A stretch of DNA of 64,000 nt from Candidatus Omnitrophota bacterium (GCA_037131245.1 JBAXRK010000002.1:28143-92142), one strand, 5' to 3'; positions 8,975 through 32,136 are shown, numbered from the stretch's first letter. Made by a program: numbers and translations. Notes: a model not told the origin generated them from the letters alone.

Positions 8975-9017
8975 GGATTTGTGTTGCGCTGTTCCATGTT
9001 TCATCAATAATGGGTTC

Positions 9018-14191: not shown

Positions 14192-14221
14192 AGCCGGTAA
14201 GGTGCCATCAAGGGGGATTCT

Positions 14222-15703: not shown

Positions 15704-15708
15704 AGCAA

Positions 15709-15755
15709 GCTCCCATCTGCCCGTCAGCCAGTTGGCTGTCGCGGCATCTGGGAGC
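15709..15755 (+). terminator. intra-operon nested stem-loop between PaaK-like gene and thiolase gene
   Basis: Outer stem GCTCCCA/TGGGAGC. Inner perfect stem CAGCCA-gt-TGGCTG. Followed by ATAAAATTTT. Confidence 0.3.
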
Positions 15756-15781
15756 ATAAAATTTTCACGGAGGAAAATTTT

Positions 15782-17059
15782 ATGGAACGTATCGCGATCA
15801 TCGACGGAGTAAGGACGCCATTTTGCAAGATGGGGACGGACTTCAATTTCATGAGCGCGCAGGAGCTCGGGCGCATTGCCGCCCGCGAGCTGATCGAGCG
15901 TACCGGATTCGACGTCCGCCATATTGACGAGGTCATTTTCGGCTGCGTTGGGCAGCCGGCCGACGCAGCGAATATCGCGCGGGTCATCGGCTTGCTGGCG
16001 GGCGTTCCCCAATCGACGCCGGCCTTCACGGTGCATCGTAATTGCGCTTCCGGCATAGAAGCGGTGGTGTCCGCGGCCGTCAAGATCCGGGCCGGTGAAG
16101 GCCGCTGCATGCTGGTCGGTGGCACGGAATCGATGAGCAATATCCCGCTTTTTTTCAGCAAGGCGTCCCAGGAGCTTTTCATGGAGCTGGGCCGTGCCAA
16201 AACCTTGTTGGCAAAACTCGCGGTGATGGCTAAATTCTGCCCGCATCATTTTTCACCTGTGGTCGGTTTACAGCTGGGGCTGACTGACCCGATCTGCAGC
16301 CTGAACATGGGGCAGACGGCGGAAGTCCTGGTGCAGGAATTCGGCATTACCCGACGGGAGCAGGACCAGTTCTCGCTGGAAAGCCATTTGAAAGCGCTCG
16401 CCTCCCGGGCCATCCTGGCGGAAGAGATCGTGCCGGTTATCCCGGGGCCGAAATACACCAAAGCCACTACCATGGATAACGGGCCGCGGGAGGGGCAGAC
16501 GATCGAAGCGCTGACCAAGCTCCGGCCTTTCTTTGATAAAGCGACTGGTACGATCACGGCGGGGAATTCCAGCCAGATCACGGACGGCGCGGCCGCCCTG
16601 CTGGTGGCTTCCGAAAGCCGGGCCAAAGAGCTGGGGTTAAAGCCGCTGGGGTATGTGCGGGCTTTCGCTTATGCCGGGGTTGAACCGTCCCGGATGGGTA
16701 TTGGGCCGGCGCACGCGATCCCTCTGGCACTTAAGAAAGCAGGCCTGAAATTATCTGACATGCAGGCTATTGAGATCAATGAGGCCTTTGCCGCCCAGGT
16801 CATTGCGTGCATGAAAGCGCTGGCGTCACCGGCCTTCGCGGCAAAGTTCGGGTTCGAAGGGTTTACGGGCGAGATCGATCCGGCGAAGCTTAACAAACAT
16901 GGCGGGGGCGTGGCGCTGGGGCATCCGGTAGGCACCACGGGCGCGCGGATCATTCTGACCACGCTTAAGCGGTTACAAAGGGAGAATCAGGATTTCGGCG
17001 TGGCGTCGCTTTGTATCGGGGGAGGCCAGGGTGCGGCGGTGGTCCTGGAACGGGCGTAG
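15782..17059 (+). CDS. acetyl-CoA acyltransferase / 3-ketoacyl-CoA thiolase
   Basis: 425 aa. Thiolase catalytic Cys context NCASG, C-terminal GHPVGTTGARI and CIGGGQG motifs. GGAGG RBS. Confidence 0.85.
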   Translation: MERIAIIDGVRTPFCKMGTDFNFMSAQELGRIAARELIERTGFDVRHIDEVIFGCVGQPADAANIARVIGLLAGVPQSTPAFTVHRNCASGIEAVVSAAVKIRAGEGRCMLVGGTESMSNIPLFFSKASQELFMELGRAKTLLAKLAVMAKFCPHHFSPVVGLQLGLTDPICSLNMGQTAEVLVQEFGITRREQDQFSLESHLKALASRAILAEEIVPVIPGPKYTKATTMDNGPREGQTIEALTKLRPFFDKATGTITAGNSSQITDGAAALLVASESRAKELGLKPLGYVRAFAYAGVEPSRMGIGPAHAIPLALKKAGLKLSDMQAIEINEAFAAQVIACMKALASPAFAAKFGFEGFTGEIDPAKLNKHGGGVALGHPVGTTGARIILTTLKRLQRENQDFGVASLCIGGGQGAAVVLERA

Positions 17060-17089
17060 TATCGGGGAAAAATTTATAAGGAGATACCT

Positions 17090-18943
17090 ATGAGCATGTT
17101 CGATAAAAATATCAGCAAGGAAAAACTTCAGTCCCTGGAGTTTGCCGAGGCGGCGCGCGAGCAGCAGTGGCAGTTTCCCAGTTTCGCGCTCAAGCTTTTT
17201 CACGGCAGCGTGGCCTGGTCGCTGATCCACCCTTTTCCGGAACAGTCCGCCGAAGAGAAGAAGGCCGGCGATGAATACCTGGCTAAGATGGAGAAGTTCT
17301 TGCGTGAGAACCTCAATCCCGATGAGGTTGACCGCACGGGGCTGATCCCCGAGAAGGTTTATAAGGGCCTGGGCGAGCTCAAGGCGTTCGCGCTCAAGAT
17401 CCCCAAAGAGTACGGCGGGATGGAATTTAGCCAATACAATTATAACCGCATTATGCACCTGGTCGCCAGTTACTGCGGTTCGACGGCGGTGCTTTTGTCG
17501 GCGCATCAAAGCATCGGCGTGCCGCAGCCGCTGAAATTGTTCGGCACCCCCGAGCAGAAGAATAAGTACCTGCCGCTGTTTGCCAAAGGCGCGATCTCGG
17601 CGTTCGCCTTGACCGAACCGACGGTCGGTTCCGATCCGCGCAAGATGCTCACCACCGCGACACCGACGGAAGACGGGAAGCATTTTATTATCAACGGCGA
17701 AAAGCTCTGGTGTACTAACGGCCTGATCGCCGACGTTATCGCGGTGATGGCGGTCACCCCGCCCAAGATCGTCAAGGGCAAAGAGGTCAAGCAGATCACG
17801 GCGTTCATCGTGGAGGGCAAAACGCCGGGGATCGAGAAGGTCCACCGCTGTGATTTCATGGGATTACATGGCATTCAGATCGGGCTCATCCGGTTCAATA
17901 ATGTGAAAGTACCGCGCGAGAATATCATCCTTGGTGAAGGCGAAGGGCTGAAGCTGGCGCTGATGACGCTGAATGTCGGCCGCCTCACCTTGCCGGCCGC
18001 ATCCGTCGGCATCGCCAAGTGGTGCATGTTCGTTACCCGTGAGTGGGCGAAAAAACGCCAGCAGTGGGGCGCGCCGATCGGGGAGCATGAATCCGTGGCG
18101 CTGAAGATGTCCTATATTGCCAGCCATACATTCGCGCTTGACGCGGTCACCTGGCTGACTTCCGCGATGGCCGACGATAAGCATCGCGATATTCGCCTGG
18201 AAGCGGCGCTGGCCAAGTTGTTCTCGACCGAGGTTTCCTGGAAGATCGCGGATGAAACCTTGCAGATCCGTGGCGGCAGCGGGTATGAATCCAGCTCTTC
18301 ACTCAAGCGTCGCGGCGTGGACGATTGGCCCGTGGAGCGGGTGCTGCGTGACGTGCGCATCAACCGGATCATCGAGGGTACCAGTGAGATCATGCACCTG
18401 TTCATCGCCCGCGAAGCGCTCGACCCGCATTTGTCGTATTTAAAGCCGCTGCTTAGCGGCCGTACGCCGATCCTGGCCAAGCTGGGCGCGGCCCTCAAGA
18501 TGATGGCCCATTACGCGGTGTGGTATCCGGGCCTGTGGGGCGGATTCTTCACCCCGCCCGAGATCGGCAGTTTGCCGGGCCCGCTGCAGCCGCAGATGAT
18601 GTATGTGCGCAGGGCCAGCCGCCGCTTGGCGCGCGGGACCTTCCATCAGATGGTCATTTATCAGCAGAAGCTCGAGAGCAAGCAGAGCATCCTCAACCGC
18701 ATCGTTGATATCGGGACGGAGCTCTTTTCAATTTCCGCGGTTTGCTCATACGCGGTGATGTTGCACAAGAACGGCCAGGAGAATGCGCTCGACCTGGCGG
18801 TGGCCTATTGCCTGGAATCCCGTAAAAGGGTTGATGCTCTTTTCCTGGAGGCCGGCTCGAACCATGACAAGGTCAGTTTGAAGCTCGCGAAAAATGTCCT
18901 TGGCGGAGAGTTTAAATGGATGGAGAACGAAGTTATAAAATAA
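17090..18943 (+). CDS. large acyl-CoA dehydrogenase (FadE-like)
   Basis: 617 aa. ACAD N/M/C domains (FALTEP..GSD, QIRGGSGY) with a C-terminal extension. AAGGAGA RBS. Confidence 0.8.
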   Translation: MSMFDKNISKEKLQSLEFAEAAREQQWQFPSFALKLFHGSVAWSLIHPFPEQSAEEKKAGDEYLAKMEKFLRENLNPDEVDRTGLIPEKVYKGLGELKAFALKIPKEYGGMEFSQYNYNRIMHLVASYCGSTAVLLSAHQSIGVPQPLKLFGTPEQKNKYLPLFAKGAISAFALTEPTVGSDPRKMLTTATPTEDGKHFIINGEKLWCTNGLIADVIAVMAVTPPKIVKGKEVKQITAFIVEGKTPGIEKVHRCDFMGLHGIQIGLIRFNNVKVPRENIILGEGEGLKLALMTLNVGRLTLPAASVGIAKWCMFVTREWAKKRQQWGAPIGEHESVALKMSYIASHTFALDAVTWLTSAMADDKHRDIRLEAALAKLFSTEVSWKIADETLQIRGGSGYESSSSLKRRGVDDWPVERVLRDVRINRIIEGTSEIMHLFIAREALDPHLSYLKPLLSGRTPILAKLGAALKMMAHYAVWYPGLWGGFFTPPEIGSLPGPLQPQMMYVRRASRRLARGTFHQMVIYQQKLESKQSILNRIVDIGTELFSISAVCSYAVMLHKNGQENALDLAVAYCLESRKRVDALFLEAGSNHDKVSLKLAKNVLGGEFKWMENEVIK

Positions 18944-21027
18944 GCGCCGACCCGTCTTTCTTCAACAAGCGGGCGGTCGTCAAGGAGATCACGATCTTCG
19001 GCGGTCTTAGCTGGCTGACGGTCAACCGCATCGCGCGCCTGGTCGAGCTTGTTGAGTTCCCTAAAGGGAGCCTGATCTGCCGGCAGGGCGCGCCCGCGGA
19101 CGCGTTCTACGCTATGGTTTCCGGCCGGGTCACGTCTTACCAGGTGGACGCCCGGGGGCAGAAGGACGTGGTTGACGTCCTGGTGCGCGGCATGCATTTC
19201 GGCACCATTTCCGCCCTGACGGGCGAGAACCATTCGCATACCTACCAGGCGGTCAATGATTCCCTGGTGCTCAAGATCAAAAAGGAAGATTTCGCCGAGC
19301 TCTTGCAGGTCACGCCTAAACTGGCGCTGGCGCTTAGCGTCAATCTGTCCCTGAAGGCCCGCGAGCGGTCGCCTGTCCCGTCGGGATCACACGAGAACGC
19401 GCTGATCGCGGTCTACGCCCCGTCCGGGGGGAACGCCAGCGGTGCTTATGCCGCCAGCCTGGCCTCGTCGCTGAAAGACCAGGCGCACGGGAGCAAGGTC
19501 TTGCTGCTGCGTTTTTCATCTGATCCGTCTTCATCCCTGTTGAATTTACAGGATATTATTTCCGATCATCAGCGCAGTTTGCAGGCTGTGTCCCAGGGCA
19601 ATACAACAGTAGATACGCTGGAGGTCCGGTTCGACCCGAAGGATCCGGGGATCAGCGGGCGTATCGGCCAGTTCGCGGGCTGGTTCGTTAAGGATTATGA
19701 GCGCATTGTTTTTGACCTTTCCGGGCCGATGGAGGACGCGGTCATCAAGCTGCTGATCCAGTCGGATATTATCCATTTGTCCGTCCGGGCCCTGGAGGCG
19801 GAGCTGGAACTGGCACGGCAGGCTATTGAGGTCCTTTCACGGGAGTTGAAGGAGGAATTCAGCCCCGATAAAGTGCGGGCGGTCATTGACGGCCAGCCGG
19901 GAGAAGGGGCGCTTAAGCCGGAAGATATCCGCAAGGTCCTTAATTACGATTCGTTTGTGGTCCTGCCTTATCTGGAGGCTGACTATATTCTGGCCGTGCA
20001 AAGGCTGGGCCGGCAGATCACCGGCACCATGATCGGGCTGGTCCTCGGCGGCGGCGCGGCGCTGGGCATGGCTCATGTGGGCGTGATCCGGGTGCTGGAG
20101 CGCGAGAAGATACCGGTCGACGTGGTGGTCGGCAGCAGCATGGGGGCGCTGATCGGCGGCTTATGGGTTTCCGGCCACAACGCGGATGATCTGGAGAAGA
20201 TCGCCCGGGAATTTTCCAATCAGGCCGGCCTGCTGAAACTTTTTGACCCGCCGGTGCAGCGCGGGCTGGTGCTCCTGGTCATTATTTGCGTGTTCTGGCT
20301 GCTGGGCTACGGGTTGCTGGCGGCGTTCCTGATCTTCATGCTGATCCCGCTGGGTGTGGTGCCGGTCTCCGGTGTGGTGAAGGGCAAGGCTATCGGCCGG
20401 TGGCTTAAGAGCAAATTCGGCCGGGCGGCTTTCCATGATACGTCCGTGCCGCTGCGGGTGGTGGGCTATGACCTGCTGCACCGGCGCGAGATCGTGATCG
20501 ACCAGGGCATTATTATGGACGCGGTTTTTAAAAGCATCGCGATCCCGGGCATTATTCCGCCGGTTACTGAGGCGGGGCAGATGGTTATTGATGGCGGGGT
20601 TTTAAACCCCCTGCCGGTGAATGTGCTCACCGACATGGGCATTAAGCGCATCATCGCGGTCAATGTGCTGCAGTCGCCCGAAGAGGTTTGCTGGGGTGAA
20701 GAATGGAGCATCAAGCGCTACCGGCATATGGCCCGGGTCCCGTTCAAGCGCCATCCATGGAAATTCATTTCGTTGCGCCTGGGCGGCTTCCTGGGAAAAT
20801 TCTTATCGCCTAACATCGCGGATATTATTGTCCGCACCTTACAGGCCTCCGAGTATATCTTCGCCGAGAACAGCGGCCGGCAGGCCAATGTGCTGATCCA
20901 CCCCGACCTTCGGGGCATTCAGTGGTTCGAGCTTTACGAAGTCGATAAACTCATCCAGCGCGGGCACGAGGCCGCGATGCAGCATTTACCCGCCATGAAA
21001 GCCATGGTCAAGAAGGAGAAACAATGA
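18916..21027 (+). CDS. cyclic-nucleotide-binding domain / patatin-like phospholipase fusion
   Basis: 703 aa. N-terminal CAP-type cNMP-binding domain (FGGLSWLTVNRIARLVELVEFPKGSLICRQGAPADAFYAMVSGRV). C-terminal patatin signatures: GGGAALG (GxGxxG), GSSMG (GxSxG) and DGG. A hydrophobic hairpin is inserted between the GxSxG and DGG motifs. Overlaps the ACAD stop by 28 nt. Confidence 0.7.
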   Translation: MDGERSYKISADPSFFNKRAVVKEITIFGGLSWLTVNRIARLVELVEFPKGSLICRQGAPADAFYAMVSGRVTSYQVDARGQKDVVDVLVRGMHFGTISALTGENHSHTYQAVNDSLVLKIKKEDFAELLQVTPKLALALSVNLSLKARERSPVPSGSHENALIAVYAPSGGNASGAYAASLASSLKDQAHGSKVLLLRFSSDPSSSLLNLQDIISDHQRSLQAVSQGNTTVDTLEVRFDPKDPGISGRIGQFAGWFVKDYERIVFDLSGPMEDAVIKLLIQSDIIHLSVRALEAELELARQAIEVLSRELKEEFSPDKVRAVIDGQPGEGALKPEDIRKVLNYDSFVVLPYLEADYILAVQRLGRQITGTMIGLVLGGGAALGMAHVGVIRVLEREKIPVDVVVGSSMGALIGGLWVSGHNADDLEKIAREFSNQAGLLKLFDPPVQRGLVLLVIICVFWLLGYGLLAAFLIFMLIPLGVVPVSGVVKGKAIGRWLKSKFGRAAFHDTSVPLRVVGYDLLHRREIVIDQGIIMDAVFKSIAIPGIIPPVTEAGQMVIDGGVLNPLPVNVLTDMGIKRIIAVNVLQSPEEVCWGEEWSIKRYRHMARVPFKRHPWKFISLRLGGFLGKFLSPNIADIIVRTLQASEYIFAENSGRQANVLIHPDLRGIQWFELYEVDKLIQRGHEAAMQHLPAMKAMVKKEKQ

Positions 21028-21395
21028 AAACCATTCTGATCGTTGAAGATACCCAGGATTACGCGGACGCCCTTTCCTTCATCCTGTCACGGAAAGGCTT
21101 TAACGTTGCCCTGGCGCCCGATGGAGCGACCGGCGTCACCAAAGCCGTCAGGCTTAAGCCCGACCTGATCCTGATGGACGTGATGCTGCCCGACCAGGAC
21201 GGCGCGGAGACGGTCACGCAGATCCGGGAACATCAGGCCCTATCCGGCATTCCTATCGTTTTCCTGACCGCGCTTACCTCTGATAACAAGCCTGGCGACC
21301 AAACGATCGTGGTCCATGACCGGCCTTATCCGGCGCTTTCCAAAATGCTGGGGCAGGATGAGATCGTCAAGCGGGTCGAGCAATTCCTCGCTTAA
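21024..21395 (+). CDS. stand-alone response-regulator receiver (CheY-like REC) protein
   Basis: 123 aa. ILIVEDTQD, phospho-acceptor context LILMDVMLPDQDG, then LTA..K. No output domain. ATGA overlap with the upstream gene. Confidence 0.75.
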   Translation: MKTILIVEDTQDYADALSFILSRKGFNVALAPDGATGVTKAVRLKPDLILMDVMLPDQDGAETVTQIREHQALSGIPIVFLTALTSDNKPGDQTIVVHDRPYPALSKMLGQDEIVKRVEQFLA

Positions 21396-21497: not shown

Positions 21498-23081
21498 ATG
21501 ATAAATATAAGCCCTTCAAAATTAGCCGTGATCGCAGGCCTGGCCATTCTTCTGGTGGCGGCGATCCTCTATAAGCAGTCGATCGAAAAAGTGGTCATGC
21601 CCGGCCGCCTGGCCGAGGCCCATGCCAAGTATGAGAGCCAATGCATCAAATGTCATTCCGCTTTCAAAAAAGGTGAGCAGAATGCCCTGTGCCTCGATTG
21701 CCATAAAGACGTCGCCGGCGACTTAAAGGTGCATCAGGGTTTGCACGGCCAGATCGTGGCCATTTCGAGCAAGGATTGTAAATCCTGCCATCCCGACCAT
21801 ATGGGCCGGTCTTTTGTTATCGCCCGCCTGGATAAAGCCACCTTCAAACACGACTGGACAGACTTTCCCTTGCACGACGCGCACGCGGGCCTGAGCGTGA
21901 CCTGCGACGCCTGCCATACGGCCGGTAAAAAACATCGAGATGCTCCGAAGGATTGTTTCAGCTGCCATCAGAAGGACGATCATCATAAGGGCGCCCTGGG
22001 CAAGAATTGCGCGGATTGCCACAAGGAAACGGCCTGGAAGGAAACGTATTTCAATCATGCCAAGACGCACTTTTTATTGACGGGCAAGCATCAGAAGGTG
22101 GCTTGCAATGCCTGTCATACCAACGAGACGTATAAGAATACGCCGCTCGACTGCAAGTCCTGCCATATGATCAACGATGTCCACGCCAGCCCTAAGGAAG
22201 AGCGCTGTGAACGCTGTCATAATCCGGAGGATTGGAAAAAGGTCACCTTTTTGCATGATACGGCTACCAAGTATCCTTTGAAAGGCGCGCATGTTCAGGC
22301 GGCCTGCGCCGCTTGCCATAAAGCGAACCTGTTCACCGTTAAGACAGGAACGCAATGCGTTGACTGCCATAAGGTTGATGATGTGCATAAAGAAAAGAAC
22401 GGTGTTAAATGCGCGTCCTGCCATACCGAGAATGACTGGAAGAAAGTGACGTTCGACCATGATCGCGATACGCATTTCAAGCTGTCGGGCCGGCATGGCA
22501 AGACCCAGTGTGATGCTTGCCATAAAGCGCCGTCCCTGGACATGAAAGTTGATAAAGTCTGTAACGCCTGCCACGAGTCGCGGGATGTGCATAAGGGGCA
22601 GGTCGGTGTTGATTGCCAGGTGTGCCATAACGAAGCGGGGTGGAAGGAAAGCATTAAGTTCGATCATGACCTGGGCGGTTTTCCGTTGATCGGCCAGCAC
22701 ACGGTCCTTGCCTGTAGTCAATGTCACAAGACCATGGCTTTTAAAGATGCCAAGATCGATTGTAATTCCTGTCATGCCAAAGAGGACGTTCACAAGAAAG
22801 GGTTGGGGACCGAGTGCGCGGATTGCCATAATCCCAACGGGTGGAAGTTCTGGCAGTTCGACCACGATACGCAAACGAAATACAAGCTTGAAGGGCCGCA
22901 CGCGGGGATCAAGTGCCAGGCCTGCCACTATCAGCCGATGGGTAAAGTGGTAACGGCGTCGACGAATTGTATCGCCTGCCACGAGAAGGACGATGCTCAC
23001 AAGGGGCAGTTCGGGGAGAACTGCGAGCAATGCCACGCGGTCGATTCGTTCAAGAAATATTTCAAGGGGAGAAAGAACTGA
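21498..23081 (+). CDS. multihaem cytochrome c (~21 CxxCH motifs), signal-anchored
   Basis: 527 aa. N-terminal TM/signal segment. 21 CxxCH motifs counted by hand (CIKCH, CLDCH, CKSCH ... CEQCH). Very haem-dense. Confidence 0.85.
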   Translation: MINISPSKLAVIAGLAILLVAAILYKQSIEKVVMPGRLAEAHAKYESQCIKCHSAFKKGEQNALCLDCHKDVAGDLKVHQGLHGQIVAISSKDCKSCHPDHMGRSFVIARLDKATFKHDWTDFPLHDAHAGLSVTCDACHTAGKKHRDAPKDCFSCHQKDDHHKGALGKNCADCHKETAWKETYFNHAKTHFLLTGKHQKVACNACHTNETYKNTPLDCKSCHMINDVHASPKEERCERCHNPEDWKKVTFLHDTATKYPLKGAHVQAACAACHKANLFTVKTGTQCVDCHKVDDVHKEKNGVKCASCHTENDWKKVTFDHDRDTHFKLSGRHGKTQCDACHKAPSLDMKVDKVCNACHESRDVHKGQVGVDCQVCHNEAGWKESIKFDHDLGGFPLIGQHTVLACSQCHKTMAFKDAKIDCNSCHAKEDVHKKGLGTECADCHNPNGWKFWQFDHDTQTKYKLEGPHAGIKCQACHYQPMGKVVTASTNCIACHEKDDAHKGQFGENCEQCHAVDSFKKYFKGRKN

Positions 23082-26000
23082 TGCGACATCTATTCTTGAC
23101 GGGCTTGCTGATGGTGTTCGTTGTGGCGGGCGCTGGCGCGGCGCTGGCTGCCGATGCGCCGGCGTTCGACCATTTCGCGACCGGCTATCCTCTTAATGGC
23201 GCGCATCGGGGGATCTCTTGCGATAAATGCCATATCCGCGGGGTGTTCAAAGGGACGCCGAAAGTGTGCGGTTCCTGCCATATTTCCGGCGGCTCTTTCG
23301 CGGCGACGCCCAAATCGGCGAATCATATTCAGAGCAGTGAGCGTTGCGATGATTGCCATTCCACGGACAGTTTCAGCCACGCGACGATCAACCATGCCCT
23401 TTTTACCGGCACGTGTTCGAGTTGTCATAATGGCACGATCGCGACGGGAAAATCGGCGGCGCATATCCCCTCATCAAGCGCTTGCGCGACCTGCCATGCC
23501 ACCAGTGCCTGGGTCCCGACGAAACGCATTGATCATGCTTTTGTCGTTGGCACCTGCGCGAGCTGCCATAACGGGTCAACCGCGACGGGAAAACCGGCGA
23601 CTCACCTGGCGACGAACGCGGCGTGCAGCACCTGCCATGGCACGTCCAGTTGGGCGACATCATCTTTTGATCATAGCGGGATCAGCGGGGTGTGTTCTTC
23701 CTGCCATAATGGAACAACGGCCACGGGAAAGTCCGCGACGCATGTGGCGACCAGCACGAATTGCAGTGCCTGCCATGGCACGGCTAATTGGGCGATCAAT
23801 CGTTTTGACCACACCCAAGCCAGCGGTGCCTGCTCGAGTTGTCATAATGGGACGGCGGCGACGGGTAAGGCGGCGACGCATATCGCGTCCGCCAGCACGT
23901 GCGCCAGCTGCCATTCGACGTCTTCCTGGACGGCGGGGACCAAGGTGGACCATGCTTTTGTCACGGGGACTTGCGCCAACTGTCATAACGGCACGTCGGC
24001 CACCGGAAAACCGGCTACGCACGTTGCCACGACGGCTAATTGCAGCAGCTGTCACAGCACGGCCAGTTGGGCGGTGGCGTCGTTCACGCATGCCGCGGTT
24101 TCCGGAAGTTGTGCAAGCTGCCATAATGGTACAACGGCGACAGGGAAATCGCCGACGCATGTCGCGACCAGTACGAATTGCAGTGCCTGTCACGGGACGT
24201 CCCATTGGGCGGTGACCTCTTTTGATCATACCCAGGCGGTGGGGGCCTGTTCCAGTTGCCATAATGGGACGGCGGCGACGGGAAAGCCGGCCACGCATAT
24301 CGCGTCTGCCAGCACTTGCGCCAGTTGTCATTCGACCTCTTCCTGGACGGCGGGGACCAAGGTGGACCATGCTTTTGTTACGGGGACTTGCGCGAGCTGC
24401 CATAACGGGACGACCGCGACCGGTAAATCGCCGACGCATATCGCCACCTCTGGCAGCTGTAATGCCTGCCATGGCACGTCCAGCTGGGTTATGTCGACCT
24501 TTGATCATAGCCAGGCCAGCGGAACCTGTTCGAGTTGCCATAACGGGACAGCGGCAACGGGTAAGCCGGCGACGCATATTGGCTCTGCCAGCACCTGCGC
24601 CAGCTGTCATAATACGACGGCCTGGACGCCCTTGACCCGGATGGACCATACGGCCGCGACCGGGACCTGCGCGAATTGTCATAACGGGACGGCAGCAACG
24701 GGCAAGCCGGCCACGCATGTGGCGACGACGGGCAGTTGTGATGCCTGCCATTCAACCTCCAGCTGGGTGGTTTCTTCTTTCGATCACAGCAAAGCCAGCG
24801 GCACGTGCGTGAGCTGCCATAATGGAACGACCGCGACGGGGAAATCGGCCACGCATGTGGCGACCAGTACGAATTGCACCGCTTGTCACAATACGAACAA
24901 TTGGGTGGTGACGGCTTTTGATCATACGCAAGCAGTTGGCACGTGTTCAACCTGCCATAATGGGACGGCGGCAACGGGTAAGTCGGCGACGCACATTGCT
25001 TCCGCCAGCACTTGCGCGAGTTGCCACTCGACAGCCACTTGGTCGCCGGCGACCCGCGTGGACCATACGGCGGTGACCGGGACTTGCGCCAGCTGCCATA
25101 ACGGGACGACGGCCACCGGTAAACCGGCGACGCACGTGCCGACAACGGCTAGCTGTAATACGTGCCACGGCACTTCCAGTTGGGTTGTTGCGGCCTTTAA
25201 TCATAGCGGGGTGACGGGTACATGCGCGAGTTGTCATAACGGGACGACGGCGACCGGTAAATCGGCGACGCACGTGCCGACCAGTACCAATTGTAGCGCT
25301 TGTCATAACACGAACAACTGGGTGGTGACGGCTTTCGATCACAGCCAGGCGGTAGGTGCGTGTTCCACCTGTCATAACGGGACGGCCGCGACCGGTAAAT
25401 CGCCGACACATATTGCTTCAGCCAGCACCTGCGCCAGCTGCCATAACACGACAGTGTGGAGCCCGGTGACACGGGTGGACCATACGGCGGTGAGCGGCAC
25501 CTGCGCGAGCTGTCATAACGGGACAGCGGCCACAGGCAAGCCGGCCACGCATATTGCCACCACCGGTAATTGTGATGCTTGCCATTCAACCTCCAGCTGG
25601 GTGGTGGCGACGTTCGACCACAGCAAAGCCAGCGGCACGTGCGTGAGCTGCCATAACGGGACGACGGCGACGGGCAAGTCGGCCACGCACGTGGCGACCA
25701 GCACGAATTGCAGCGCCTGCCACAATACGAATAATTGGGTTGTAACGGCTTTCGACCATAGCCAGGCGGTTGGCACATGCTCAACGTGCCATAACGGGAC
25801 AGCGGCGACGGGGAAGTCGGCGACGCATATTGCTTCAGCCAGCACCTGCGCGAGCTGCCATTCAACGTCGGTGTGGAGCCCGGTAACGCGGGTGGACCAT
25901 ACGGCGGTGACCGGCACGTGCGCCAGCTGCCATAATGGCACGGCCGCGACAGGGAAGCCGGCCACGCATGTGGCGACCACGAGCAATTGCAATGCCTGCC

Positions 26001-27166
26001 ACGGAACGAGTTCCTGGCTTATTTCCCGGTTCGATCATTCCCAGGCAACGGGGACCTGCGTCAGCTGCCATAACGGGACGGCAGCGACCGGTAAATCGCC
26101 CACGCATATCACCACGTCAACCGCTTGCGCGAACTGCCATAATACGACGGCCTGGAGCCCGGTGACACGGGTGGACCACACGTCGGTGACCGGCACGTGC
26201 GCGAGCTGCCATAACGGAACGAAGGCGACAGGCAAGTCGGCCACGCATATCGCGACATCGGGTGCTTGTGACGCGTGTCATAACGCGACGGCCTGGACGC
26301 CGGTAACGCGGATCGACCATACGCTGGTCACCGGCACGTGTGTTTCCTGCCATAACGGCACGGCAGCAACGGGTAAGTCGGTCACGCATATCAGCACGTC
26401 GACCGCTTGCGCGAACTGTCATAATACGACGGCCTGGAGCCCGGTGACACGGGTGGACCATACGGCCGTGACCGGCAGCTGCTCTAGCTGTCATAACGGA
26501 ACGGCGGCGACCGGGAAAACACCGACGCATATCAATACCACGAATGCTTGCGACAGCTGTCATTCCACAACCACCTGGACGGCGGTCACGCGCGTGGATC
26601 ATACGGCGGTGGTCGGGACCTGCGCGAGCTGCCATAACGGGACGATCGCGACAGGAAAGACGCCCACCCATATCCCGTCTTCCACCAGCTGTGGTTCCTG
26701 CCATAACACGAATGCCTGGTTACCGGCGGTTTTCGACCATACCGGTGTGGCGCAGACCTGCGTGACCTGCCATAATGGCACAACCGTGGCCGGCAAGTCG
26801 GCGAGCCATATGAGCACAACGAACAGCTGCAACCTGTGCCATTCCACCGTGGCCTGGGTACCGGTCGCCCGCGTTGACCACACGGCGGTCAGCGGCACCT
26901 GCTACAGTTGCCATAACGGGACGGTAGCGACGGGTAAGGGCCCGTTGCATATGAATACGAGCAACACGTGTACCAATTGCCATTCCACGTCGAACTGGAC
27001 GGTAGCGGATAATAGGGTGAGCCATACGGATGTTATCGGGACCTGCACCAGCTGCCATGACGGGCTGACGCATGACGGCATGACCGTTCAGGGTAAGCCG
27101 CGCGGCCATCCGGCGACAAACAAGGATTGCGGCGCTTGCCATTCAACAAGAACCTTTAGTATGTAA
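23081..27166 (+). CDS. giant tandem-repeat multihaem cytochrome c (~1361 aa, ~57 CxxCH motifs)
   Basis: Start ATG 23081 overlaps the upstream TGA by 1 nt, in frame with track ORF 22967. Signal peptide MRHLFLTGLLMVFVVAGAGAALAA. Body built of ~46-47-aa Thr/Ser/Asn-rich modules, each with two CxxCH (TCxSCHNGTxATGK...CxxCH.T..W). Manual count ~57 haem motifs. Confidence 0.85.
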   Translation: MRHLFLTGLLMVFVVAGAGAALAADAPAFDHFATGYPLNGAHRGISCDKCHIRGVFKGTPKVCGSCHISGGSFAATPKSANHIQSSERCDDCHSTDSFSHATINHALFTGTCSSCHNGTIATGKSAAHIPSSSACATCHATSAWVPTKRIDHAFVVGTCASCHNGSTATGKPATHLATNAACSTCHGTSSWATSSFDHSGISGVCSSCHNGTTATGKSATHVATSTNCSACHGTANWAINRFDHTQASGACSSCHNGTAATGKAATHIASASTCASCHSTSSWTAGTKVDHAFVTGTCANCHNGTSATGKPATHVATTANCSSCHSTASWAVASFTHAAVSGSCASCHNGTTATGKSPTHVATSTNCSACHGTSHWAVTSFDHTQAVGACSSCHNGTAATGKPATHIASASTCASCHSTSSWTAGTKVDHAFVTGTCASCHNGTTATGKSPTHIATSGSCNACHGTSSWVMSTFDHSQASGTCSSCHNGTAATGKPATHIGSASTCASCHNTTAWTPLTRMDHTAATGTCANCHNGTAATGKPATHVATTGSCDACHSTSSWVVSSFDHSKASGTCVSCHNGTTATGKSATHVATSTNCTACHNTNNWVVTAFDHTQAVGTCSTCHNGTAATGKSATHIASASTCASCHSTATWSPATRVDHTAVTGTCASCHNGTTATGKPATHVPTTASCNTCHGTSSWVVAAFNHSGVTGTCASCHNGTTATGKSATHVPTSTNCSACHNTNNWVVTAFDHSQAVGACSTCHNGTAATGKSPTHIASASTCASCHNTTVWSPVTRVDHTAVSGTCASCHNGTAATGKPATHIATTGNCDACHSTSSWVVATFDHSKASGTCVSCHNGTTATGKSATHVATSTNCSACHNTNNWVVTAFDHSQAVGTCSTCHNGTAATGKSATHIASASTCASCHSTSVWSPVTRVDHTAVTGTCASCHNGTAATGKPATHVATTSNCNACHGTSSWLISRFDHSQATGTCVSCHNGTAATGKSPTHITTSTACANCHNTTAWSPVTRVDHTSVTGTCASCHNGTKATGKSATHIATSGACDACHNATAWTPVTRIDHTLVTGTCVSCHNGTAATGKSVTHISTSTACANCHNTTAWSPVTRVDHTAVTGSCSSCHNGTAATGKTPTHINTTNACDSCHSTTTWTAVTRVDHTAVVGTCASCHNGTIATGKTPTHIPSSTSCGSCHNTNAWLPAVFDHTGVAQTCVTCHNGTTVAGKSASHMSTTNSCNLCHSTVAWVPVARVDHTAVSGTCYSCHNGTVATGKGPLHMNTSNTCTNCHSTSNWTVADNRVSHTDVIGTCTSCHDGLTHDGMTVQGKPRGHPATNKDCGACHSTRTFSM
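23410..26950. repeat. coding tandem repeat array (~140-nt double-haem module; 3-module ~417-nt higher-order repeat) inside the giant cytochrome gene
   Basis: Protein-level periodicity of 46-47 aa with module types A/B/C recurring as ABC-ABC. DNA copies e.g. 24779-25200 vs 25613-26030 are ~85% identical. The array generates many spurious long ORFs in all other frames. Confidence 0.8.
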
Positions 27167-27178
27167 TAGAGGGTGACA

Positions 27179-29317
27179 ATGAAATTGTTCAGAACGATGT
27201 TGTTCCTGATAGCGGCGGTATTTTGCCTGGCCGCGCCTGTTCATGCCAGCGCGTTGGAAGAGGTGAGGATACAAGTTCTGCCTGATGGGTATGAACTATC
27301 CCTTAATTCTCTTTACGCGTTTCAATTACGCAATCTGTCTCCGGTCGGCAAGGCGCGGAAATTCGATATTCAGCTAAAGACCCTGAATTATTCGACCCTC
27401 TCCCAGGAAGGCCGGGATGATATTAATAACGGGGTGATCCCTGCCTGGGACAAGTCGACGGGCCTGCCGCTGAAGGATTTGCATTTTGACGGTGACGACC
27501 AGGAGAATCCCAAGTTAATGATCGAGTTTACCGAGGATGTCCAGATCGATGTGCGTGGTACCGGGGATCAGAAAACCCTGATCATCCGGGTGACGACCGA
27601 CCAGCCGCCGGCGAGTGTGGTGCTTGGCGGGCAACAGGGGGTGGCGATCCCCTTGCCTGACGTCAAGGATGCCGGTGCGGAGTCCGAGGCGCCGCTCATG
27701 GCACAAGCCAAAGAGGCCTTGATGAAAGGCGAGTATGATATGGCGGCCGAGCTTTATCTGAAGGTGCTCTTGACCGCCAAAGGCCCCTTGAAACAACAAG
27801 CCCGAGAATTGCTTGGCGTTGCCCGTGAACGTAATGGCCAGCTGCCCCATGCTGCGGCCGAGTATCAGACCTATCTTAGGGAATATCCTAAAGGTCCCGA
27901 TGCCGACCGCGTGCGCCAGCGCTTGGCCGGCGTGGTAACGGCCGATATGGAACCGCGGACGGCTTTGAAGGAGCCGCTGACGCCCGCCCAGAAAGCCCGG
28001 GCCGAGCAGGCTTTATGGACATCGCAGATCTTTGGCAGCATGTCGCAGTTCTATTACTGGGATTCGCTCAAGATCAAGGGCGGCAAATTCCGCCAGAGCG
28101 TTAATTATCTTTCCAATGACGTGGACCTTAACGGCCGCTTCAAAAGCAAGGACATGGATGTGAACGCCCGCTTTACCGGCGGTACTTTGCAGAATTACCG
28201 TGAGGGCGGCGTTGACGAGGACCGCATCAGCGCGATGTCGGTGGAAGTTAATATGAAAGAGAAGGGGCTTTATACCCGGGTGGGCCGCCAGTCGCTCTCG
28301 ACCGGCGGGGTGCTGGGGCGTTTTGACGGTGTGCAGGTGTCCCAGCGGATCAGGCCCGGCATCAAGCTTAACGGCGTTTACGGCTTTCCGGTGGATACGG
28401 TCAAGATGCCGGAGATCGTGGCGCAGAAGCATTTCGCGGGGGTCAGCATCGATTGGGGCCAGCCAAAAGCCAAGTGGAACTTTAATACCTACGCGATCGA
28501 GCAGTGGAATACGGGCTTGGTGGACCGTCAAGCGGTCGGCGGTGAAATGCGTTATTTTGACATGCAGAAGGCTTTTTTCACCATGCTTGATTATGATACC
28601 TACTTCAAGCAGATCAATATCGCGTCGTTCAACGGGCACTGGAGTTTGCCTACCAAGACCTCGCTGACTTTTGCCGGGGATTACCGCAAGACGCCGCTAT
28701 TGACCGTCAATAATTCCGTTCAGGGGACGGGGTTCGTTGAGATCTCGGACCTGACGGACCGTTTTACCCGTAAAGAATTGCGTCAGTTAGCGCTGGATCG
28801 TACGACCAATAGCAAGTCGCTCTCGGCCGGGATCAGCCAGGACTTGCGCGCGAATTTACAGTGGACGGCGGACGTTTCGGTTTCCGCGATCGAAGGCACG
28901 ATGTCGACGCCGGCGATCACCCTGGTGGAAGGGTCGGACGCGGTGGCCCCGGATTACACGTATTCAACCGAACTTATCGCGAGCAATGTGTTCAAGGAAG
29001 AAGATTCGATCATTTTCGGGTTGGGTTATACCGATTCCGCGGCGAGCAATGACAATTCGATGAACATCAACTGGCGTTATCCGCTGACGTCGCGGATACG
29101 CTTTAACCAGAAGCTGCATATCGCGTTCCGGACAGCGAAGGAATCGACCGACCGGCGGCTAACGACCCGGCCGACCGCGCACCTGGACATACGGTTGACC
29201 AAGTCGGCGAACCTGGAACTGGAAGCCGGAACGGAATGGGTGACCGAGATATCGGCCGGCCAGCGGACCAAGTCGCTGGAAGAGTTCGCGACGATCGGTT
29301 ACCGGCTCAGCTTTTAA
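27179..29317 (+). CDS. outer-membrane beta-barrel-like protein with N-terminal TPR-like region (candidate porin partner of the cytochromes)
   Basis: Start moved to ATG 27179 (MKLFRTMLFLIAAVFCLAAPVHA signal peptide) with an AGAGGGTGA RBS. C-terminus GYRLSF has the aromatic terminal residue typical of OM beta-barrels. Alternating amphipathic strands in the C-terminal ~450 aa. Confidence 0.5.
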   Translation: MKLFRTMLFLIAAVFCLAAPVHASALEEVRIQVLPDGYELSLNSLYAFQLRNLSPVGKARKFDIQLKTLNYSTLSQEGRDDINNGVIPAWDKSTGLPLKDLHFDGDDQENPKLMIEFTEDVQIDVRGTGDQKTLIIRVTTDQPPASVVLGGQQGVAIPLPDVKDAGAESEAPLMAQAKEALMKGEYDMAAELYLKVLLTAKGPLKQQARELLGVARERNGQLPHAAAEYQTYLREYPKGPDADRVRQRLAGVVTADMEPRTALKEPLTPAQKARAEQALWTSQIFGSMSQFYYWDSLKIKGGKFRQSVNYLSNDVDLNGRFKSKDMDVNARFTGGTLQNYREGGVDEDRISAMSVEVNMKEKGLYTRVGRQSLSTGGVLGRFDGVQVSQRIRPGIKLNGVYGFPVDTVKMPEIVAQKHFAGVSIDWGQPKAKWNFNTYAIEQWNTGLVDRQAVGGEMRYFDMQKAFFTMLDYDTYFKQINIASFNGHWSLPTKTSLTFAGDYRKTPLLTVNNSVQGTGFVEISDLTDRFTRKELRQLALDRTTNSKSLSAGISQDLRANLQWTADVSVSAIEGTMSTPAITLVEGSDAVAPDYTYSTELIASNVFKEEDSIIFGLGYTDSAASNDNSMNINWRYPLTSRIRFNQKLHIAFRTAKESTDRRLTTRPTAHLDIRLTKSANLELEAGTEWVTEISAGQRTKSLEEFATIGYRLSF

Positions 29318-29325
29318 CAGGCAGG

Positions 29326-31239
29326 ATGGTCGCATTGAAGGCAGTTTTAATCGCATTATTATTTCTGGCGTGCGCGGGGGAGTGTCTTGCCGCTGTTGCC
29401 GAAAGCCCGGTGGCTCCGTCGCAGGCGCTCGAAGATGCCAAGCGCGCGGTGCGCCTGAGGGATTACAAAAAAGCATTCAACTTCTTTACCGACGCGGCGC
29501 GCCAGGGCAATGCCCAGGCGCAGTTCAACCTGGCGATGATGTATGAAAGCGGCCGGGGCACGCCCGCCGATCGCGATGCCGCGCTTAGCTGGTACAAGGC
29601 CGCGGCCCTCCTGAAATACGCTCCCGCCATTGAAAAAATCGACGAGCTTAAGAAACAGGGCGAAGATATCCGGCGTAACCCTGACGCTTCCAAAGAAGAG
29701 CAGTTGTTGGCGGCGATCCGGGAGAATAGTGCTGACGATGTGTCGCGCCTGCTGGGTGCCGGCGTTAATATCAATTACCAGGATAAATACGGGCAGACCG
29801 CTTTGATCGTGGCGGTAGAGGCCGGGCCTGACAGCCTGGACCTGGTGCGCCGGCTGGTCGCCAAAGGCGCGGGCCTGGAAGCGCAAGGTAAGGACGGGCG
29901 CAACGCGCTGTTGACGGCGACGCTGAGAAAAAATATTGAGGCGGCGCGTTTTTTGCTGGGATCCGGGGCGTTGGTTGACGCGGCCGATGCCCAGGGGGTG
30001 ACCGCGCTGATGCTGGCCGCGCAGCTTGATGACGCGGCGATGGTCAATTTGCTTATTGAAAAGAAAGCCGATCCGAAGAAGGTTAACGCGGCCGGGCATG
30101 GGGCGCTGGAGATCGCGCTGCTTAAGAAGCATGATGATATCGCCCGCCTTCTTCTGGCGACGGGCAAAGTGGCCCTGCCGCCGCAATTCAAGGATCCCGA
30201 CGCGGTAAAAGCCGTGGCGGCCAGGCTTAAGGATATGAAAGAGGCCAACAAGGGGACGCCGTTCGAGAAATGGACGCCCCTGATGCTGGCGTCATGGCGG
30301 GGAGAAAAAGAGATCGTGGTTTTGTTGCTGTCGCAGGGGGAAGCCGTCGACACCTTGAGCGATGACGGTTACACCGCGTTAAGCCGGGCGGCCTGGCAGG
30401 GGCACGCGGATATTGTGGAGCTGTTGCTGAAGGCCGGGGCGAAGAGCGACGCCGTTCCGGACCAGGCAAAAGCCTCGCCGCTGATCCTGGCGGCGGCCAA
30501 CGGGCATGAGGAGGCGCTGGCGCGCTTGATCGCCAGCAGTGGTTACGCGCCGGCGCGCGCGGCAATTTTTAAGGCAGCTTTAGCCGCCGCTGTCAAGAAC
30601 GGCCACGGGGCGGCAGCTAAATGTTTACTTGAGGCGGGGGTTCCGCTGGGTTCATCCGAAGCCGGTGGTTCGCCGCTGTTATCCGCGGCGGCCAGCGGGG
30701 ATGTTAATCTTATCGAGATCTTTCTGGACCATCAGGCTGACGTTAATGGAGCTGACAGCACGGGCCGGACGGCGTTGATGATCGCTGCCGAGAACGGCCA
30801 GGCCGACGCGGTAAAAGTCCTGCTGGCGCGCCACGCGGCGCTGGATGCCCAAAATAATGATGGGTATTCGGCGCTGTCTTTCGCGGCGCGCGCGGGTAAA
30901 GCCGATGCGGCCGCGCTGTTGCTGGCAGCCGGAAGCCGGGTTGACCTCGTGGGCATTCGTGGTGATACGCCCTTGATCCTGGCGGCGGATGCCGGCGCCG
31001 GGGAAGTGGCGCGGCTTTTGCTGGAACATAAGGCCTCGGTGGACATGGCCAATAAAGCGGGGGATACGCCGCTGCTCATCGCGGTCAAGCGCGACGATCG
31101 CGCCATGGCCGCGCTGTTTCTGGAACACGGGGCTAATCCGTACCTGTCGGTGAAGACCGTCGATAATTCCAGCGAGGCCATGAGAGCGCTGCTGGATAAA
31201 CATAAAAGTGTCAAGAATTGGCTGATGAAGCTCCTATGA
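29326..31239 (+). CDS. secreted Sel1-repeat / ankyrin-repeat protein
   Basis: Start ATG 29326 (MVALKAVLIALLFLACAGECLA signal peptide). Sel1-like repeat AQAQFNLAMMYESGRGTPADRDAALSWYKAAA. At least 10 ankyrin repeats (GxTALMxAAxxGHxxxVxxLLxxGA pattern) through the C-terminus. Confidence 0.75.
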   Translation: MVALKAVLIALLFLACAGECLAAVAESPVAPSQALEDAKRAVRLRDYKKAFNFFTDAARQGNAQAQFNLAMMYESGRGTPADRDAALSWYKAAALLKYAPAIEKIDELKKQGEDIRRNPDASKEEQLLAAIRENSADDVSRLLGAGVNINYQDKYGQTALIVAVEAGPDSLDLVRRLVAKGAGLEAQGKDGRNALLTATLRKNIEAARFLLGSGALVDAADAQGVTALMLAAQLDDAAMVNLLIEKKADPKKVNAAGHGALEIALLKKHDDIARLLLATGKVALPPQFKDPDAVKAVAARLKDMKEANKGTPFEKWTPLMLASWRGEKEIVVLLLSQGEAVDTLSDDGYTALSRAAWQGHADIVELLLKAGAKSDAVPDQAKASPLILAAANGHEEALARLIASSGYAPARAAIFKAALAAAVKNGHGAAAKCLLEAGVPLGSSEAGGSPLLSAAASGDVNLIEIFLDHQADVNGADSTGRTALMIAAENGQADAVKVLLARHAALDAQNNDGYSALSFAARAGKADAAALLLAAGSRVDLVGIRGDTPLILAADAGAGEVARLLLEHKASVDMANKAGDTPLLIAVKRDDRAMAALFLEHGANPYLSVKTVDNSSEAMRALLDKHKSVKNWLMKLL

Positions 31240-32108
31240 TAGAAAAGATAAAATCTTTTTACGCCAAAAGAATTTACAGCCGGCTTTTACCGGCCTTCTC
31301 GGTTTTTGTTTGCCTCGTCCTGCTGATCGGCTGGCGGCTTAGCCGCCATGAGCTGATCACGCCCAAACATGGCGCCGGTTACCTGCTCGGCCCGGTCGGT
31401 GTCATTTTGGTCATTGTCCTGATGATCTATCCGCTCAAGAAAAGGATCAAGACCTTGGCTGTTCCGGGCAGCGCCAAACAATGGTTCCAGTTCCACATGT
31501 TCCTTGGCGTGGTCGGGCCGCTTTTTATCCTTTATCATGCCAATTTTCATTTCGGGGCGCTTAACAGCAATGTTGCCCTTCTGTCGCTGTTGATCGTTTC
31601 GGCCAGCGGGGTGGTCGGAAAATATTTCTACGGACGGATCCATCGCACGCTCTACGGTGAGCGCACCAGTTTGCTGGAGCTACAGAAAACCTTCGACCAG
31701 CAGAAGGAAGAGGTTGAGATCCATCTGGGGATCATCCCCGGTGTCCGCGAGGAGCTCGGCCGGTTCGCGGCGAAAGTGTCCACGCCGACCAAGGAATTGA
31801 TGCTTAGTTTTAAACGTTTGTGCCTGGTGCGCTGGGAAGCGCAGGTGGTGCGCTGGAAGATCAGGGGCCTGATCATCTCTTTCCTTGATCAGCATGCCAA
31901 AGAGCGCCAGTGGAGCCCCCTGCGTAAGCGCCTGATGCGCGCGCAGATGGCTCGTAAAACGCTCAAGTTCCTTGGCCAGACGCTAAAGGTCGCGGAGTTC
32001 AACTTTTATGAACGGGTGTTCTCTTATTGGCATATGCTCCATCTGCCGCTGGTTTTTATCCTCGCCTTTGCTGTCCTTTTTCATGTTTTAGCCGTGAACC
32101 GGTATTAA
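31236..32108 (+). CDS. integral membrane protein with intramembrane His pairs (possible b-type haem / redox partner)
   Basis: ATG 31236 overlaps the ankyrin gene stop (ATGA). About 5 TM helices. TM3 carries FQFH...LYH (His i, i+14) and the last TM carries WHMLH...FH. No family assignable. Confidence 0.45.
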   Translation: MIEKIKSFYAKRIYSRLLPAFSVFVCLVLLIGWRLSRHELITPKHGAGYLLGPVGVILVIVLMIYPLKKRIKTLAVPGSAKQWFQFHMFLGVVGPLFILYHANFHFGALNSNVALLSLLIVSASGVVGKYFYGRIHRTLYGERTSLLELQKTFDQQKEEVEIHLGIIPGVREELGRFAAKVSTPTKELMLSFKRLCLVRWEAQVVRWKIRGLIISFLDQHAKERQWSPLRKRLMRAQMARKTLKFLGQTLKVAEFNFYERVFSYWHMLHLPLVFILAFAVLFHVLAVNRY

Positions 32109-32136
32109 GGAAAGCAACTGTTCTTTCCGTTTTTAA
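32109..32136 (+). terminator. rho-independent terminator after the cytochrome gene cluster
   Basis: GGAAAG-caactgtt-CTTTCC perfect 6-bp stem directly after the stop at 32108, followed by GTTTTTAATCGATTTTTTATGGTTTTTTTT. Confidence 0.55.

Follow-up and report, generated by a model that had tools for sequence, protein, structure and literature searches.

A 64,000-nt stretch of DNA from Candidatus Omnitrophota bacterium (GCA_037131245.1 JBAXRK010000002.1:28143-92142; hereafter the window, whose positions are used for all coordinates) carries at 23081-27166 a gene for a giant multihaem cytochrome built of short haem-binding repeats. The gene raises the question to which class of proteins its product belongs, where this product would act in the cell and how its repeats arose. 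Our analysis indicates that its product is probably the large cytochrome, predicted to sit at the cell surface, of a porin-cytochrome system of the PCC3 type, though we are less confident of the function than of the PCC3 identity.

The giant cytochrome and its partner genes

The reading frame of the giant gene is uninterrupted across 4086 nt, and its ATG overlaps the stop codon of the upstream gene by one base (TGATG). All 114 cysteines of the predicted protein lie inside CxxCH motifs, which follow one another at 23–24 amino acids (aa) nearly throughout, for an overall ratio of 23.9 aa per haem. Beyond the motifs there are 61 histidines; of the 57 stretches behind a motif, 52 contain exactly one of them, so that bis-His ligation of every haem is expected. 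Judged from its sequence, the mature chain would be a secreted protein of 1338 residues with 57 covalently bound bis-His c-type haems, one per ~24 residues, a density at which nearly all residues would serve haem binding. The opening motif spacing of 16 aa is common to all 16 family members for which spacings were listed, and to the close relatives at loci L026 and L037. T, A, S, G, H and C jointly make up 70% of the residues, and T, S and N 36.5%; this Thr/Ser/Asn richness, part of the original prediction for this gene, is far above that of ordinary multihaem cytochromes, as is the haem density.

In domain searches the protein falls within the c7/paired-CXXCH families, with matches to Cytochrome_C7 in 18 stretches (PF14522, E = 1.3e-79; 262.4 bits, cut-off 24.8) and to Paired_CXXCH_1 (PF09699, E = 4e-42; 142.1 bits, cut-off 20.6). 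It also matched the TIGR04257 model nanowire_3heme (E = 1.1e-11). A Pfam match to PBECR1 (E = 3.4e-4; 21.5 bits, cut-off 27.6) and matches to the NrfH, TmcA, HmcA and OmcA models, which scored under their own cut-offs, were dismissed as compositional or partial.

PCC3 systems consist of a porin, extracellular and periplasmic multihaem cytochromes and an inner-membrane protein of ~300 aa with five helices (He et al., 2017; PMC5566968). Their periplasmic cytochrome has a median of 21 haems (range 18–27), and the membrane protein carries SGXXG in helix 4 and WX3HX13H in helices 3 and 5. The extracellular cytochromes have 22–39 aa per haem, a composition rich in Thr, Ser, Ala and Gly and many repeats, each with at least one haem site; the supplementary RADAR analysis of the same paper has repeat diagonals of ~47 aa in Leptothrix and, at a second level, of 138 aa in a Riftia endosymbiont (PMC5566968).

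Each of these components has a counterpart in the window. Next to the giant gene, whose product is itself a large, secreted, repeat-rich cytochrome with few residues per haem, lies a gene for a 21-haem protein of 527 aa. This protein has a conserved QSIEKVxMPG...HAKYE stretch after its N-terminal helix and is 42–50% identical to the 18-, 21- or 24-haem protein at the same position in 28 genome-representative loci, which were compared with the periplasmic cytochrome as anchor and include Gallionellaceae, Azonexus, Rubrivivax and Bradyrhizobium. The Gallionellaceae, Azonexus and Bradyrhizobium among them are PCC3 hosts named by He et al. or close relatives of these.

On the other side of the giant gene, the adjacent outer-membrane protein is predicted to comprise a beta-sandwich (aa 28–141), a periplasmic TPR region (aa 173–257) and a 22-stranded barrel (aa 283–713). 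An AlphaFold2 model of the protein, built on a 60-sequence alignment, had a mean predicted local distance difference test score (pLDDT) of 83.4, and its Foldseek matches were porin and usher barrels (E-values of 1e-11 to 1e-7; TM-scores were low). Its counterparts at PCC3 loci, the porin genes, are homologous to it. One porin homologue (P0137, locus L034) adjoins the ResB and CcsA cytochrome c biogenesis genes and has no giant cytochrome beside it.

The fourth component, a 290-aa membrane protein, carries WFQFH-x13-H, SGVVG and WHMLH-x13-H in helices 3, 4 and 5, respectively; five hydrophobic helices were recognized by eye, of which a simple hydropathy scan flagged the first four only. A protein with two copies of WX3HX13H is present in 27 of the 28 loci, and L016 has one copy, in a fused open reading frame (ORF). 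This marker family comprises 2294 clusters (50% identity) at E <= 1e-3, and PCC3 clusters are widespread. Ferribacterium limneticum has matches to the membrane protein (31% identity, E = 7e-42), the periplasmic cytochrome (44%, E = 6e-132) and the porin (23% over the full length, E = 4e-56).

Because the giant gene and its neighbors together supply all four components, homologous to those of known loci, we place the giant gene in PCC3. It is a further example of a class published in 2017, within which its repeat architecture is ordinary. The protein had been described as unlike typical multihaem cytochromes; this is correct in general terms, but its composition, its repeats and a ratio within 22–39 aa per haem were already hallmarks of PCC3 (PMC5566968).

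Several points weigh against this assignment. The gene order in the window (periplasmic cytochrome, large cytochrome, porin, ankyrin/Sel1 protein, membrane protein) departs from the order usual in the 28 loci (membrane protein, periplasmic cytochrome, large cytochrome, porin), and we regard the cluster as a rearranged variant with all components; its nearest relative, the Logan contig L035 with a porin 66% identical, has the same order as the window. The host is labelled Omnitrophota, and PCC3 was originally defined from Alpha-, Beta- and Gammaproteobacteria only (PMC5566968). In the literature of 2025 the system is still called "functionally unverified". For two repeat units (278 aa; alignment of 23 rows, consisting of window repeats and homologue segments), an AlphaFold2 model reached a mean pLDDT of 50.7 and a predicted TM-score (pTM) of 0.23 and is unusable for geometry. 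Finally, the extracellular location is a published prediction, and the protein has neither a lipobox nor a recognizable secretion signal beyond Sec.

Between the porin and the membrane protein lies the gene for a secreted Sel1 and ankyrin-repeat protein. Homologues of it adjoin seven other PCC3 loci (L003, L005, L022, L024, L026, L035 and L037), and the loci with this neighbor have an 18- or 21-haem periplasmic cytochrome. Ankyrin is unmentioned in the PCC3 component list of He et al. (2017; PMC5566968). The protein may be a fifth PCC3 partner, perhaps a periplasmic chaperone or scaffold.

The genes of the cluster are co-oriented and tightly packed: the first two overlap by 1 nt, spacers of 6 and 8 nt follow, and the last two overlap by 4 nt. 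Promoter and terminator scans yielded consensus-level matches only, among them a possible operon end directly behind the membrane protein gene (Table 1).

Table 1. Coordinates of the cluster genes and of features within the giant cytochrome gene.
Feature	Position	Strand	Description and basis
Periplasmic multihaem cytochrome	21498-23081	+	527 aa, 21 CxxCH; N-terminal hydrophobic helix (signal peptide or anchor)
Giant multihaem cytochrome gene	23081-27166	+	Intact ORF, 1361 aa, 57 CxxCH, ~170 kDa including haems
Sec signal peptide	23081-23149	+	MRHLFLTGLLMVFVVAGAGAALA, then ADAP; read from sequence, cleavage site inferred
N-terminal head	23150-23413	+	Haems 1-3, motif spacing 16, 26, 23; motif map
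Module array	23414-27043	+	26 di-haem modules of 46-48 aa, haems 4-55; motif and module alignment
Higher-order unit U1	23555-23971	+	C-A-B, 417 nt, six haems
Higher-order unit U2	23972-24388	+	C-A-B, 417 nt, six haems
Two-module C-B unit	24389-24667	+	Without A module; shifts the 417-nt register, source of the period-279 signal
Higher-order unit U3	24668-25084	+	417 nt
Higher-order unit U4	25085-25501	+	417 nt
Higher-order unit U5	25502-25918	+	417 nt
Tail of the array	25919-27043	+	Eight modules of lower regularity, the first C-type and most of the others B-like; module matrix
C-terminal end	27044-27166	+	Haems 56 and 57; motif map
Exact repeat, 41 nt	23921-23961; partner 24338-24378		Logan contig end at 23950 falls inside
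Exact repeats, 31-41 nt	26420-26466; partners 26138-26178 and 25457-25488		Logan contig start at 26437 falls inside
Outer-membrane protein (porin)	27173-29317	+	714 aa; signal peptide, beta-sandwich, TPR, barrel, C-terminal Phe
Secreted Sel1 and ankyrin-repeat protein	29326-31239	+	637 aa from the public gene-call start; profile matches
PCC3 inner-membrane protein	31236-32108	+	290 aa, no Pfam match; motifs and homology
Terminator-like hairpin and T-run	32109-32128	+	Possible operon end; consensus match, 17 sites against 13.4 expected

Host, cellular location and proposed role

The porin of the window and a GlpK encoded at 8979-10520 are 100% identical to proteins of a metagenome-assembled genome (MAG) labelled Candidatus Omnitrophota bacterium, and the other named GlpK matches (66–72% identity) are all from Omnitrophica, with the exception of one labelled "bacterium". 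On these matches PCC3 would extend taxonomically to the Omnitrophota, subject to the caveats of MAG binning. A search of the literature for Omnitrophota together with multihaem cytochromes or extracellular electron transfer returned nothing relevant.

With a Sec signal as its sole export feature and an outside location that has been predicted, the 57-haem protein could alternatively be periplasmic and act mainly as an electron store (capacitor) or redox buffer, with no external wire; charge storage has been raised as a possible role of many haems (Hoover et al., 2023; PMC9900912). We consider this unlikely, since the synteny with an outer-membrane barrel is kept in essentially every locus and a separate 21-haem protein is already sized for spanning the periplasm. 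In addition, the haem number of the large cytochromes varies from 11 to 106 in the 28 loci, which fits a free-ended external extension better than a periplasm of fixed width.

In the PCC3-type conduit that we favor, electrons would pass between the membrane protein and the quinone pool, the 21-haem protein would bridge the periplasm, a cytochrome would thread the barrel as MtrA does MtrB, and the 57-haem chain would prolong the conduit outward from the cell. AlphaFold2 models of PCC3 cytochromes have been described as "long and mostly linear" (Hoover et al., 2023; PMC9900912), and the ten haems of MtrA extend across 80 Å (PMC7198977). Scaled from MtrA, a linear chain of 57 haems could be up to ~50 nm long.

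Omnitrophota are known mostly for very small, possibly partner-dependent cells, and in such cells a wire might serve exchange with a partner cell or a mineral. A doubtful but conceivable reading is therefore that the Omnitrophota conduit, with a single-polypeptide wire of at most ~50 nm, performs direct electron exchange with a partner cell or mineral and not Fe(II) oxidation of the type proposed for Proteobacteria.

Upstream of the cluster, a beta-oxidation set (FadB-like protein, acyl-CoA ligase, thiolase and acyl-CoA dehydrogenase) is located at 12080-18943 and GlpK/GlpD at 8979-12010. Speculatively, an outward conduit could draw electrons from these quinone-reducing catabolic routes. Adjoining the cluster on its upstream side (18916-21395) we found a cyclic-nucleotide-binding (cNMP) patatin-like phospholipase of 703 aa and a stand-alone response-regulator receiver of 123 aa. 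A receiver gene is also present near the L037 cluster, and a response regulator follows the L035 cluster; these neighbors may point to regulation.

Architecture, age and composition of the repeats

The protein had been proposed to consist of double-haem modules of 46–47 aa in three variants, A, B and C, which recur at least five times as a three-module unit of ~139 aa (417 nt). This architecture was reproduced in full. The 26 modules bear the motif described for them, and an all-against-all identity matrix recovered the three variants in the order B / CAB CAB / CB / CAB CAB CAB / C, followed by a seven-module tail in which five modules are B-like. Five complete units are thus present, with one two-module interruption. 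Two segments reported as ~85% identical in DNA sequence (24779-25200 and 25613-26030) aligned at 83.5%. Tandem Repeats Finder independently gave the period of 417, with 2.5 copies at 23534-24577 (score 1117) and 3.9 copies at 24499-26106 (score 1735), along with periods of 279 and 138–141. The 417-nt self-identity was highest at offset 834 (0.85), was 0.80 at offset 417 and had a median of 0.30 over all offsets; the maximum in a codon-shuffle control (20 shuffles) was 0.43. The closest pair of units is U3/U5, with 84% nucleotide and 93% amino acid identity and a ratio of non-synonymous to synonymous divergence (dN/dS) of 0.054. U1 and U2 share 78% of nucleotides and 82% of residues, at a synonymous divergence (dS) of 0.9.

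Homologues of the giant cytochrome number more than 2000, and 120 listed ones, from which the survey figures are taken, have 758–2378 aa, 25–94 haems and a T+S+N fraction of 0.21–0.36. With the tightest haem spacing and the highest T+S+N (0.365) among these 120, the window protein lies at the extreme of the family range and not outside it. At this compactness and regularity (24 aa per haem) it is a clean candidate for expression and structure work. The cytochromes at L028:11929-20295 (106 CxxCH in 2789 aa, from a soil Proteobacteria MAG) and L022:11660-20359 (at least 95 CxxCH, from a Bradyrhizobium MAG, in an ORF that runs past the locus edge) surpass the highest count given in 2017, 85 haems.

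Higher-order repeats (at least 65% identity over 100 aa) are common in the family and occur in 100 of 140 members, with units that hold 2, 4, 6, 10 or 12–14 haems. The six-haem unit is the commonest (27 of the 100); recurring across relatives that expanded independently, it may correspond to a period in the wire's structure. Within the subfamily of the window protein, which shares a 23/23/23/24 spacing, the L037 protein has 23 haems and the L026 protein 41. Modules are up to 98% identical to each other within the window protein and at most 61% identical to any L026 module, which argues that the arrays expanded independently in each lineage. The genome-contig scan anchored on the periplasmic cytochrome contained no relative above 50% identity. 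The L035 contig begins inside its giant gene, of which the C-terminal fragment matches the last five modules of the window protein position by position, at 71% amino acid identity over 234 codons.

The DNA identity between copies had been taken as a sign of recent tandem expansion in a recombination-prone gene. Among the five units the proportion of synonymous differences (pS) is 0.52–0.72, dS is 0.9–2.4, near saturation and thus a rough figure only, and dN/dS is 0.05–0.15, with differences mostly at third codon positions. The low dN/dS in the plus frame argues both for coding on this strand and for selection on every unit. As a yardstick, the 234 codons shared with L035 have a dS of ~1.46, with 29% of residues different. 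On this rough scale, the youngest duplications (U1/U2 and U3/U5, dS ~0.9) appear to postdate the divergence from the nearest relative by a modest margin only, and the others to be comparable to it in age. The units are thus best described, on codon divergence, as old duplications, each held since under strong purifying selection, and a recent expansion is not supported. Nor is the proneness to recombination, as the longest exact repeat in the giant gene measures 41 nt; 32 of its 31-mers recur and none of its 55-mers does. We suggest that a di-haem module of 46–47 aa would first have been duplicated in tandem in this lineage, and later a three-module, six-haem block, after which the copies would have changed at almost every synonymous site, their protein sequence being held by purifying selection.

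The array could still be the product of a recent expansion, or an assembly artefact with a wrong number of repeats. The 417-nt arrays with up to 85% DNA identity agree with this, as does the unit that lacks an A module. In two Logan contigs of run SRR12676967, which are assembled with k = 31, the sequence breaks within the gene at exact repeats: one contig stops at 23950 and the other begins at 26437. Moreover, giant cytochrome genes of relatives contain truly recent duplications, with exact internal repeats of 836 nt in L023, 380 nt in L014, 251 nt in L017 and 246 nt in L009. Against this stand the unit dS values and the shortness of the exact repeats in the window gene. In addition, a 149-kb ENA contig agrees with the window in 22139 of 22139 bases, including the whole giant gene, and a 190-kb NCBI contig in the public records has adjacent genes identical to those of the window; the two assemblies are likely to be independent of each other. 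The modules of the two-module unit are 78–79% identical in protein sequence to their best matches and do not form a fresh collapse junction, and the reading frame is open throughout. Taken together, we judge a young or misassembled array to be quite improbable. The assembly hazard that had been announced for this gene holds for fragmentation at small k, whereas no sign of collapse was found. Duplication is ongoing in the family, though not recent in the window gene, and in L023, L014, L017 and L009 collapse of repeats in short-read assemblies is a real risk.

Annotation poses a further pitfall. In the gene calls of the ENA contig (L031:4344-9964) both cytochrome genes are omitted, and eleven antisense Arg-rich ORFs are called instead across 21522-27142 on the minus strand. 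We rejected these ORFs (e.g., 22074-23036 and 23660-24751), as they are Arg-rich mirrors of the haem-motif frame, in which dN/dS is far below 1. An exact protein look-up of the giant cytochrome returned no record, and its best full-length identity to a database protein is 44–48%; the missing plus-strand call explains both at least partly. Gene callers may swap such genes for antisense ORFs, so that surveys of predicted proteins miss them, and small-k assemblies fragment within them. What the gene adds is modest: a host in the Omnitrophota, an operon in rearranged order whose ankyrin/Sel1 partner recurs elsewhere, an extremely compact protein and these annotation and assembly pitfalls; the understanding of how such proteins work is unchanged by the window gene.

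The composition had also suggested an extended architecture, possibly glycosylated or resembling a surface layer. The extended, wire-like part is the accepted reading for the family, whereas the domain scans found no SLH or S-layer domains and no oligosaccharyltransferase was recognized among the scanned neighbor genes. The protein contains 41 N-x-S/T sequons, of which 26 are the CHNG[ST] turn right after the haem histidine. Across the family the turn has the consensus CHNGxxAxGK and frequently reads CHDG instead, and the sequon is therefore not conserved. Bacterial PglB-type enzymes need D or E at position -2, and extended D/E-x-N-x-S/T sequons are absent from the protein. A polysaccharide synthesis and export locus of generic type begins 160 nt past the cluster and is absent beside L035 and L037, the two relatives whose downstream genes were read. 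This locus (32267-64000) encodes a WbaP-like transferase, enzymes for dTDP-rhamnose and GDP-mannose-derived sugars, two Wza-like exporters, ATP-grasp and GNAT enzymes, a flippase and GT1/GT4 glycosyltransferases, with AbiEii-like and AAA/DUF4143 genes inserted. Glycosylation and a surface layer are thus unsupported, O-glycosylation being beyond the reach of sequence. A structural role as a glycosylated filament or surface-layer-like protein, with the haems of secondary importance, as the Thr/Ser/Asn content, the sequons and the nearby polysaccharide genes could suggest, is highly improbable for a protein with every cysteine in a haem motif, with most of its sequons at a haem-adjacent turn that often reads CHDG or lacks the T in relatives, and with none of the dedicated machinery or domains detected.

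Comparison with known multihaem systems

The closest likeness is to PCC3 itself (PMC5566968; PMC9900912), with which the window shares the four partners, a low ratio of residues to haem (23.9 compared with 22–39 aa), the richness in small residues and repeats of ~47 aa. It differs in that the membrane protein comes last, after the ankyrin/Sel1 gene, and in a host affinity to Omnitrophota instead of Alpha-, Beta- or Gammaproteobacteria.

The MtrA/MtoA/DmsE family likewise forms a bis-His haem chain with little secondary structure (MtrCAB structure 6R2Q; Edwards et al., 2020; PMC7198977), and both it and the giant cytochrome are meant to sit in or traverse an outer-membrane barrel. The similarity to the family model TIGR03508 is weak yet significant (225.7 bits, cut-off 192.2). 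This score sums 12 partial matches, the best of which covers positions 65–221 of 258, and with 57 haems instead of 10 the protein is not a DmsE/MtrA decahaem cytochrome. The barrel of the window has 22 predicted strands, compared with 26 in MtrB, and MtrC, the surface partner, has a lipobox where the giant cytochrome has none. A sequence search of the PDB gave weak matches only, the best two being 9eov_A (annotated as MtrC; E = 1.3e-6) and 6r2q_A (E = 8.9e-6), which we take to be the MtrA of the MtrCAB complex, contrary to its printed label.

Among the Geobacter c7 polymers, GSU1996 is a periplasmic dodecahaem cytochrome that repeats a three-haem domain. These proteins likewise string c7/paired-CXXCH domains in tandem along one chain, a likeness seen at the level of the Pfam and NCBIfam c7 models. 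In the window, by contrast, the repeat unit has two haems, the protein has five-fold more haems and the gene is part of a porin operon.

No OmcS, OmcE or OmcZ chain was among the PDB sequence matches at E <= 0.01, and the giant cytochrome is thus not placed with these proteins by sequence. The proposed job is the same, that is, long-range extracellular conduction along a continuous chain of haems. OmcS, OmcE and OmcZ are non-covalent polymers of subunits with 4–8 haems, whereas the length of the proposed wire in the window would be set within a single polypeptide.

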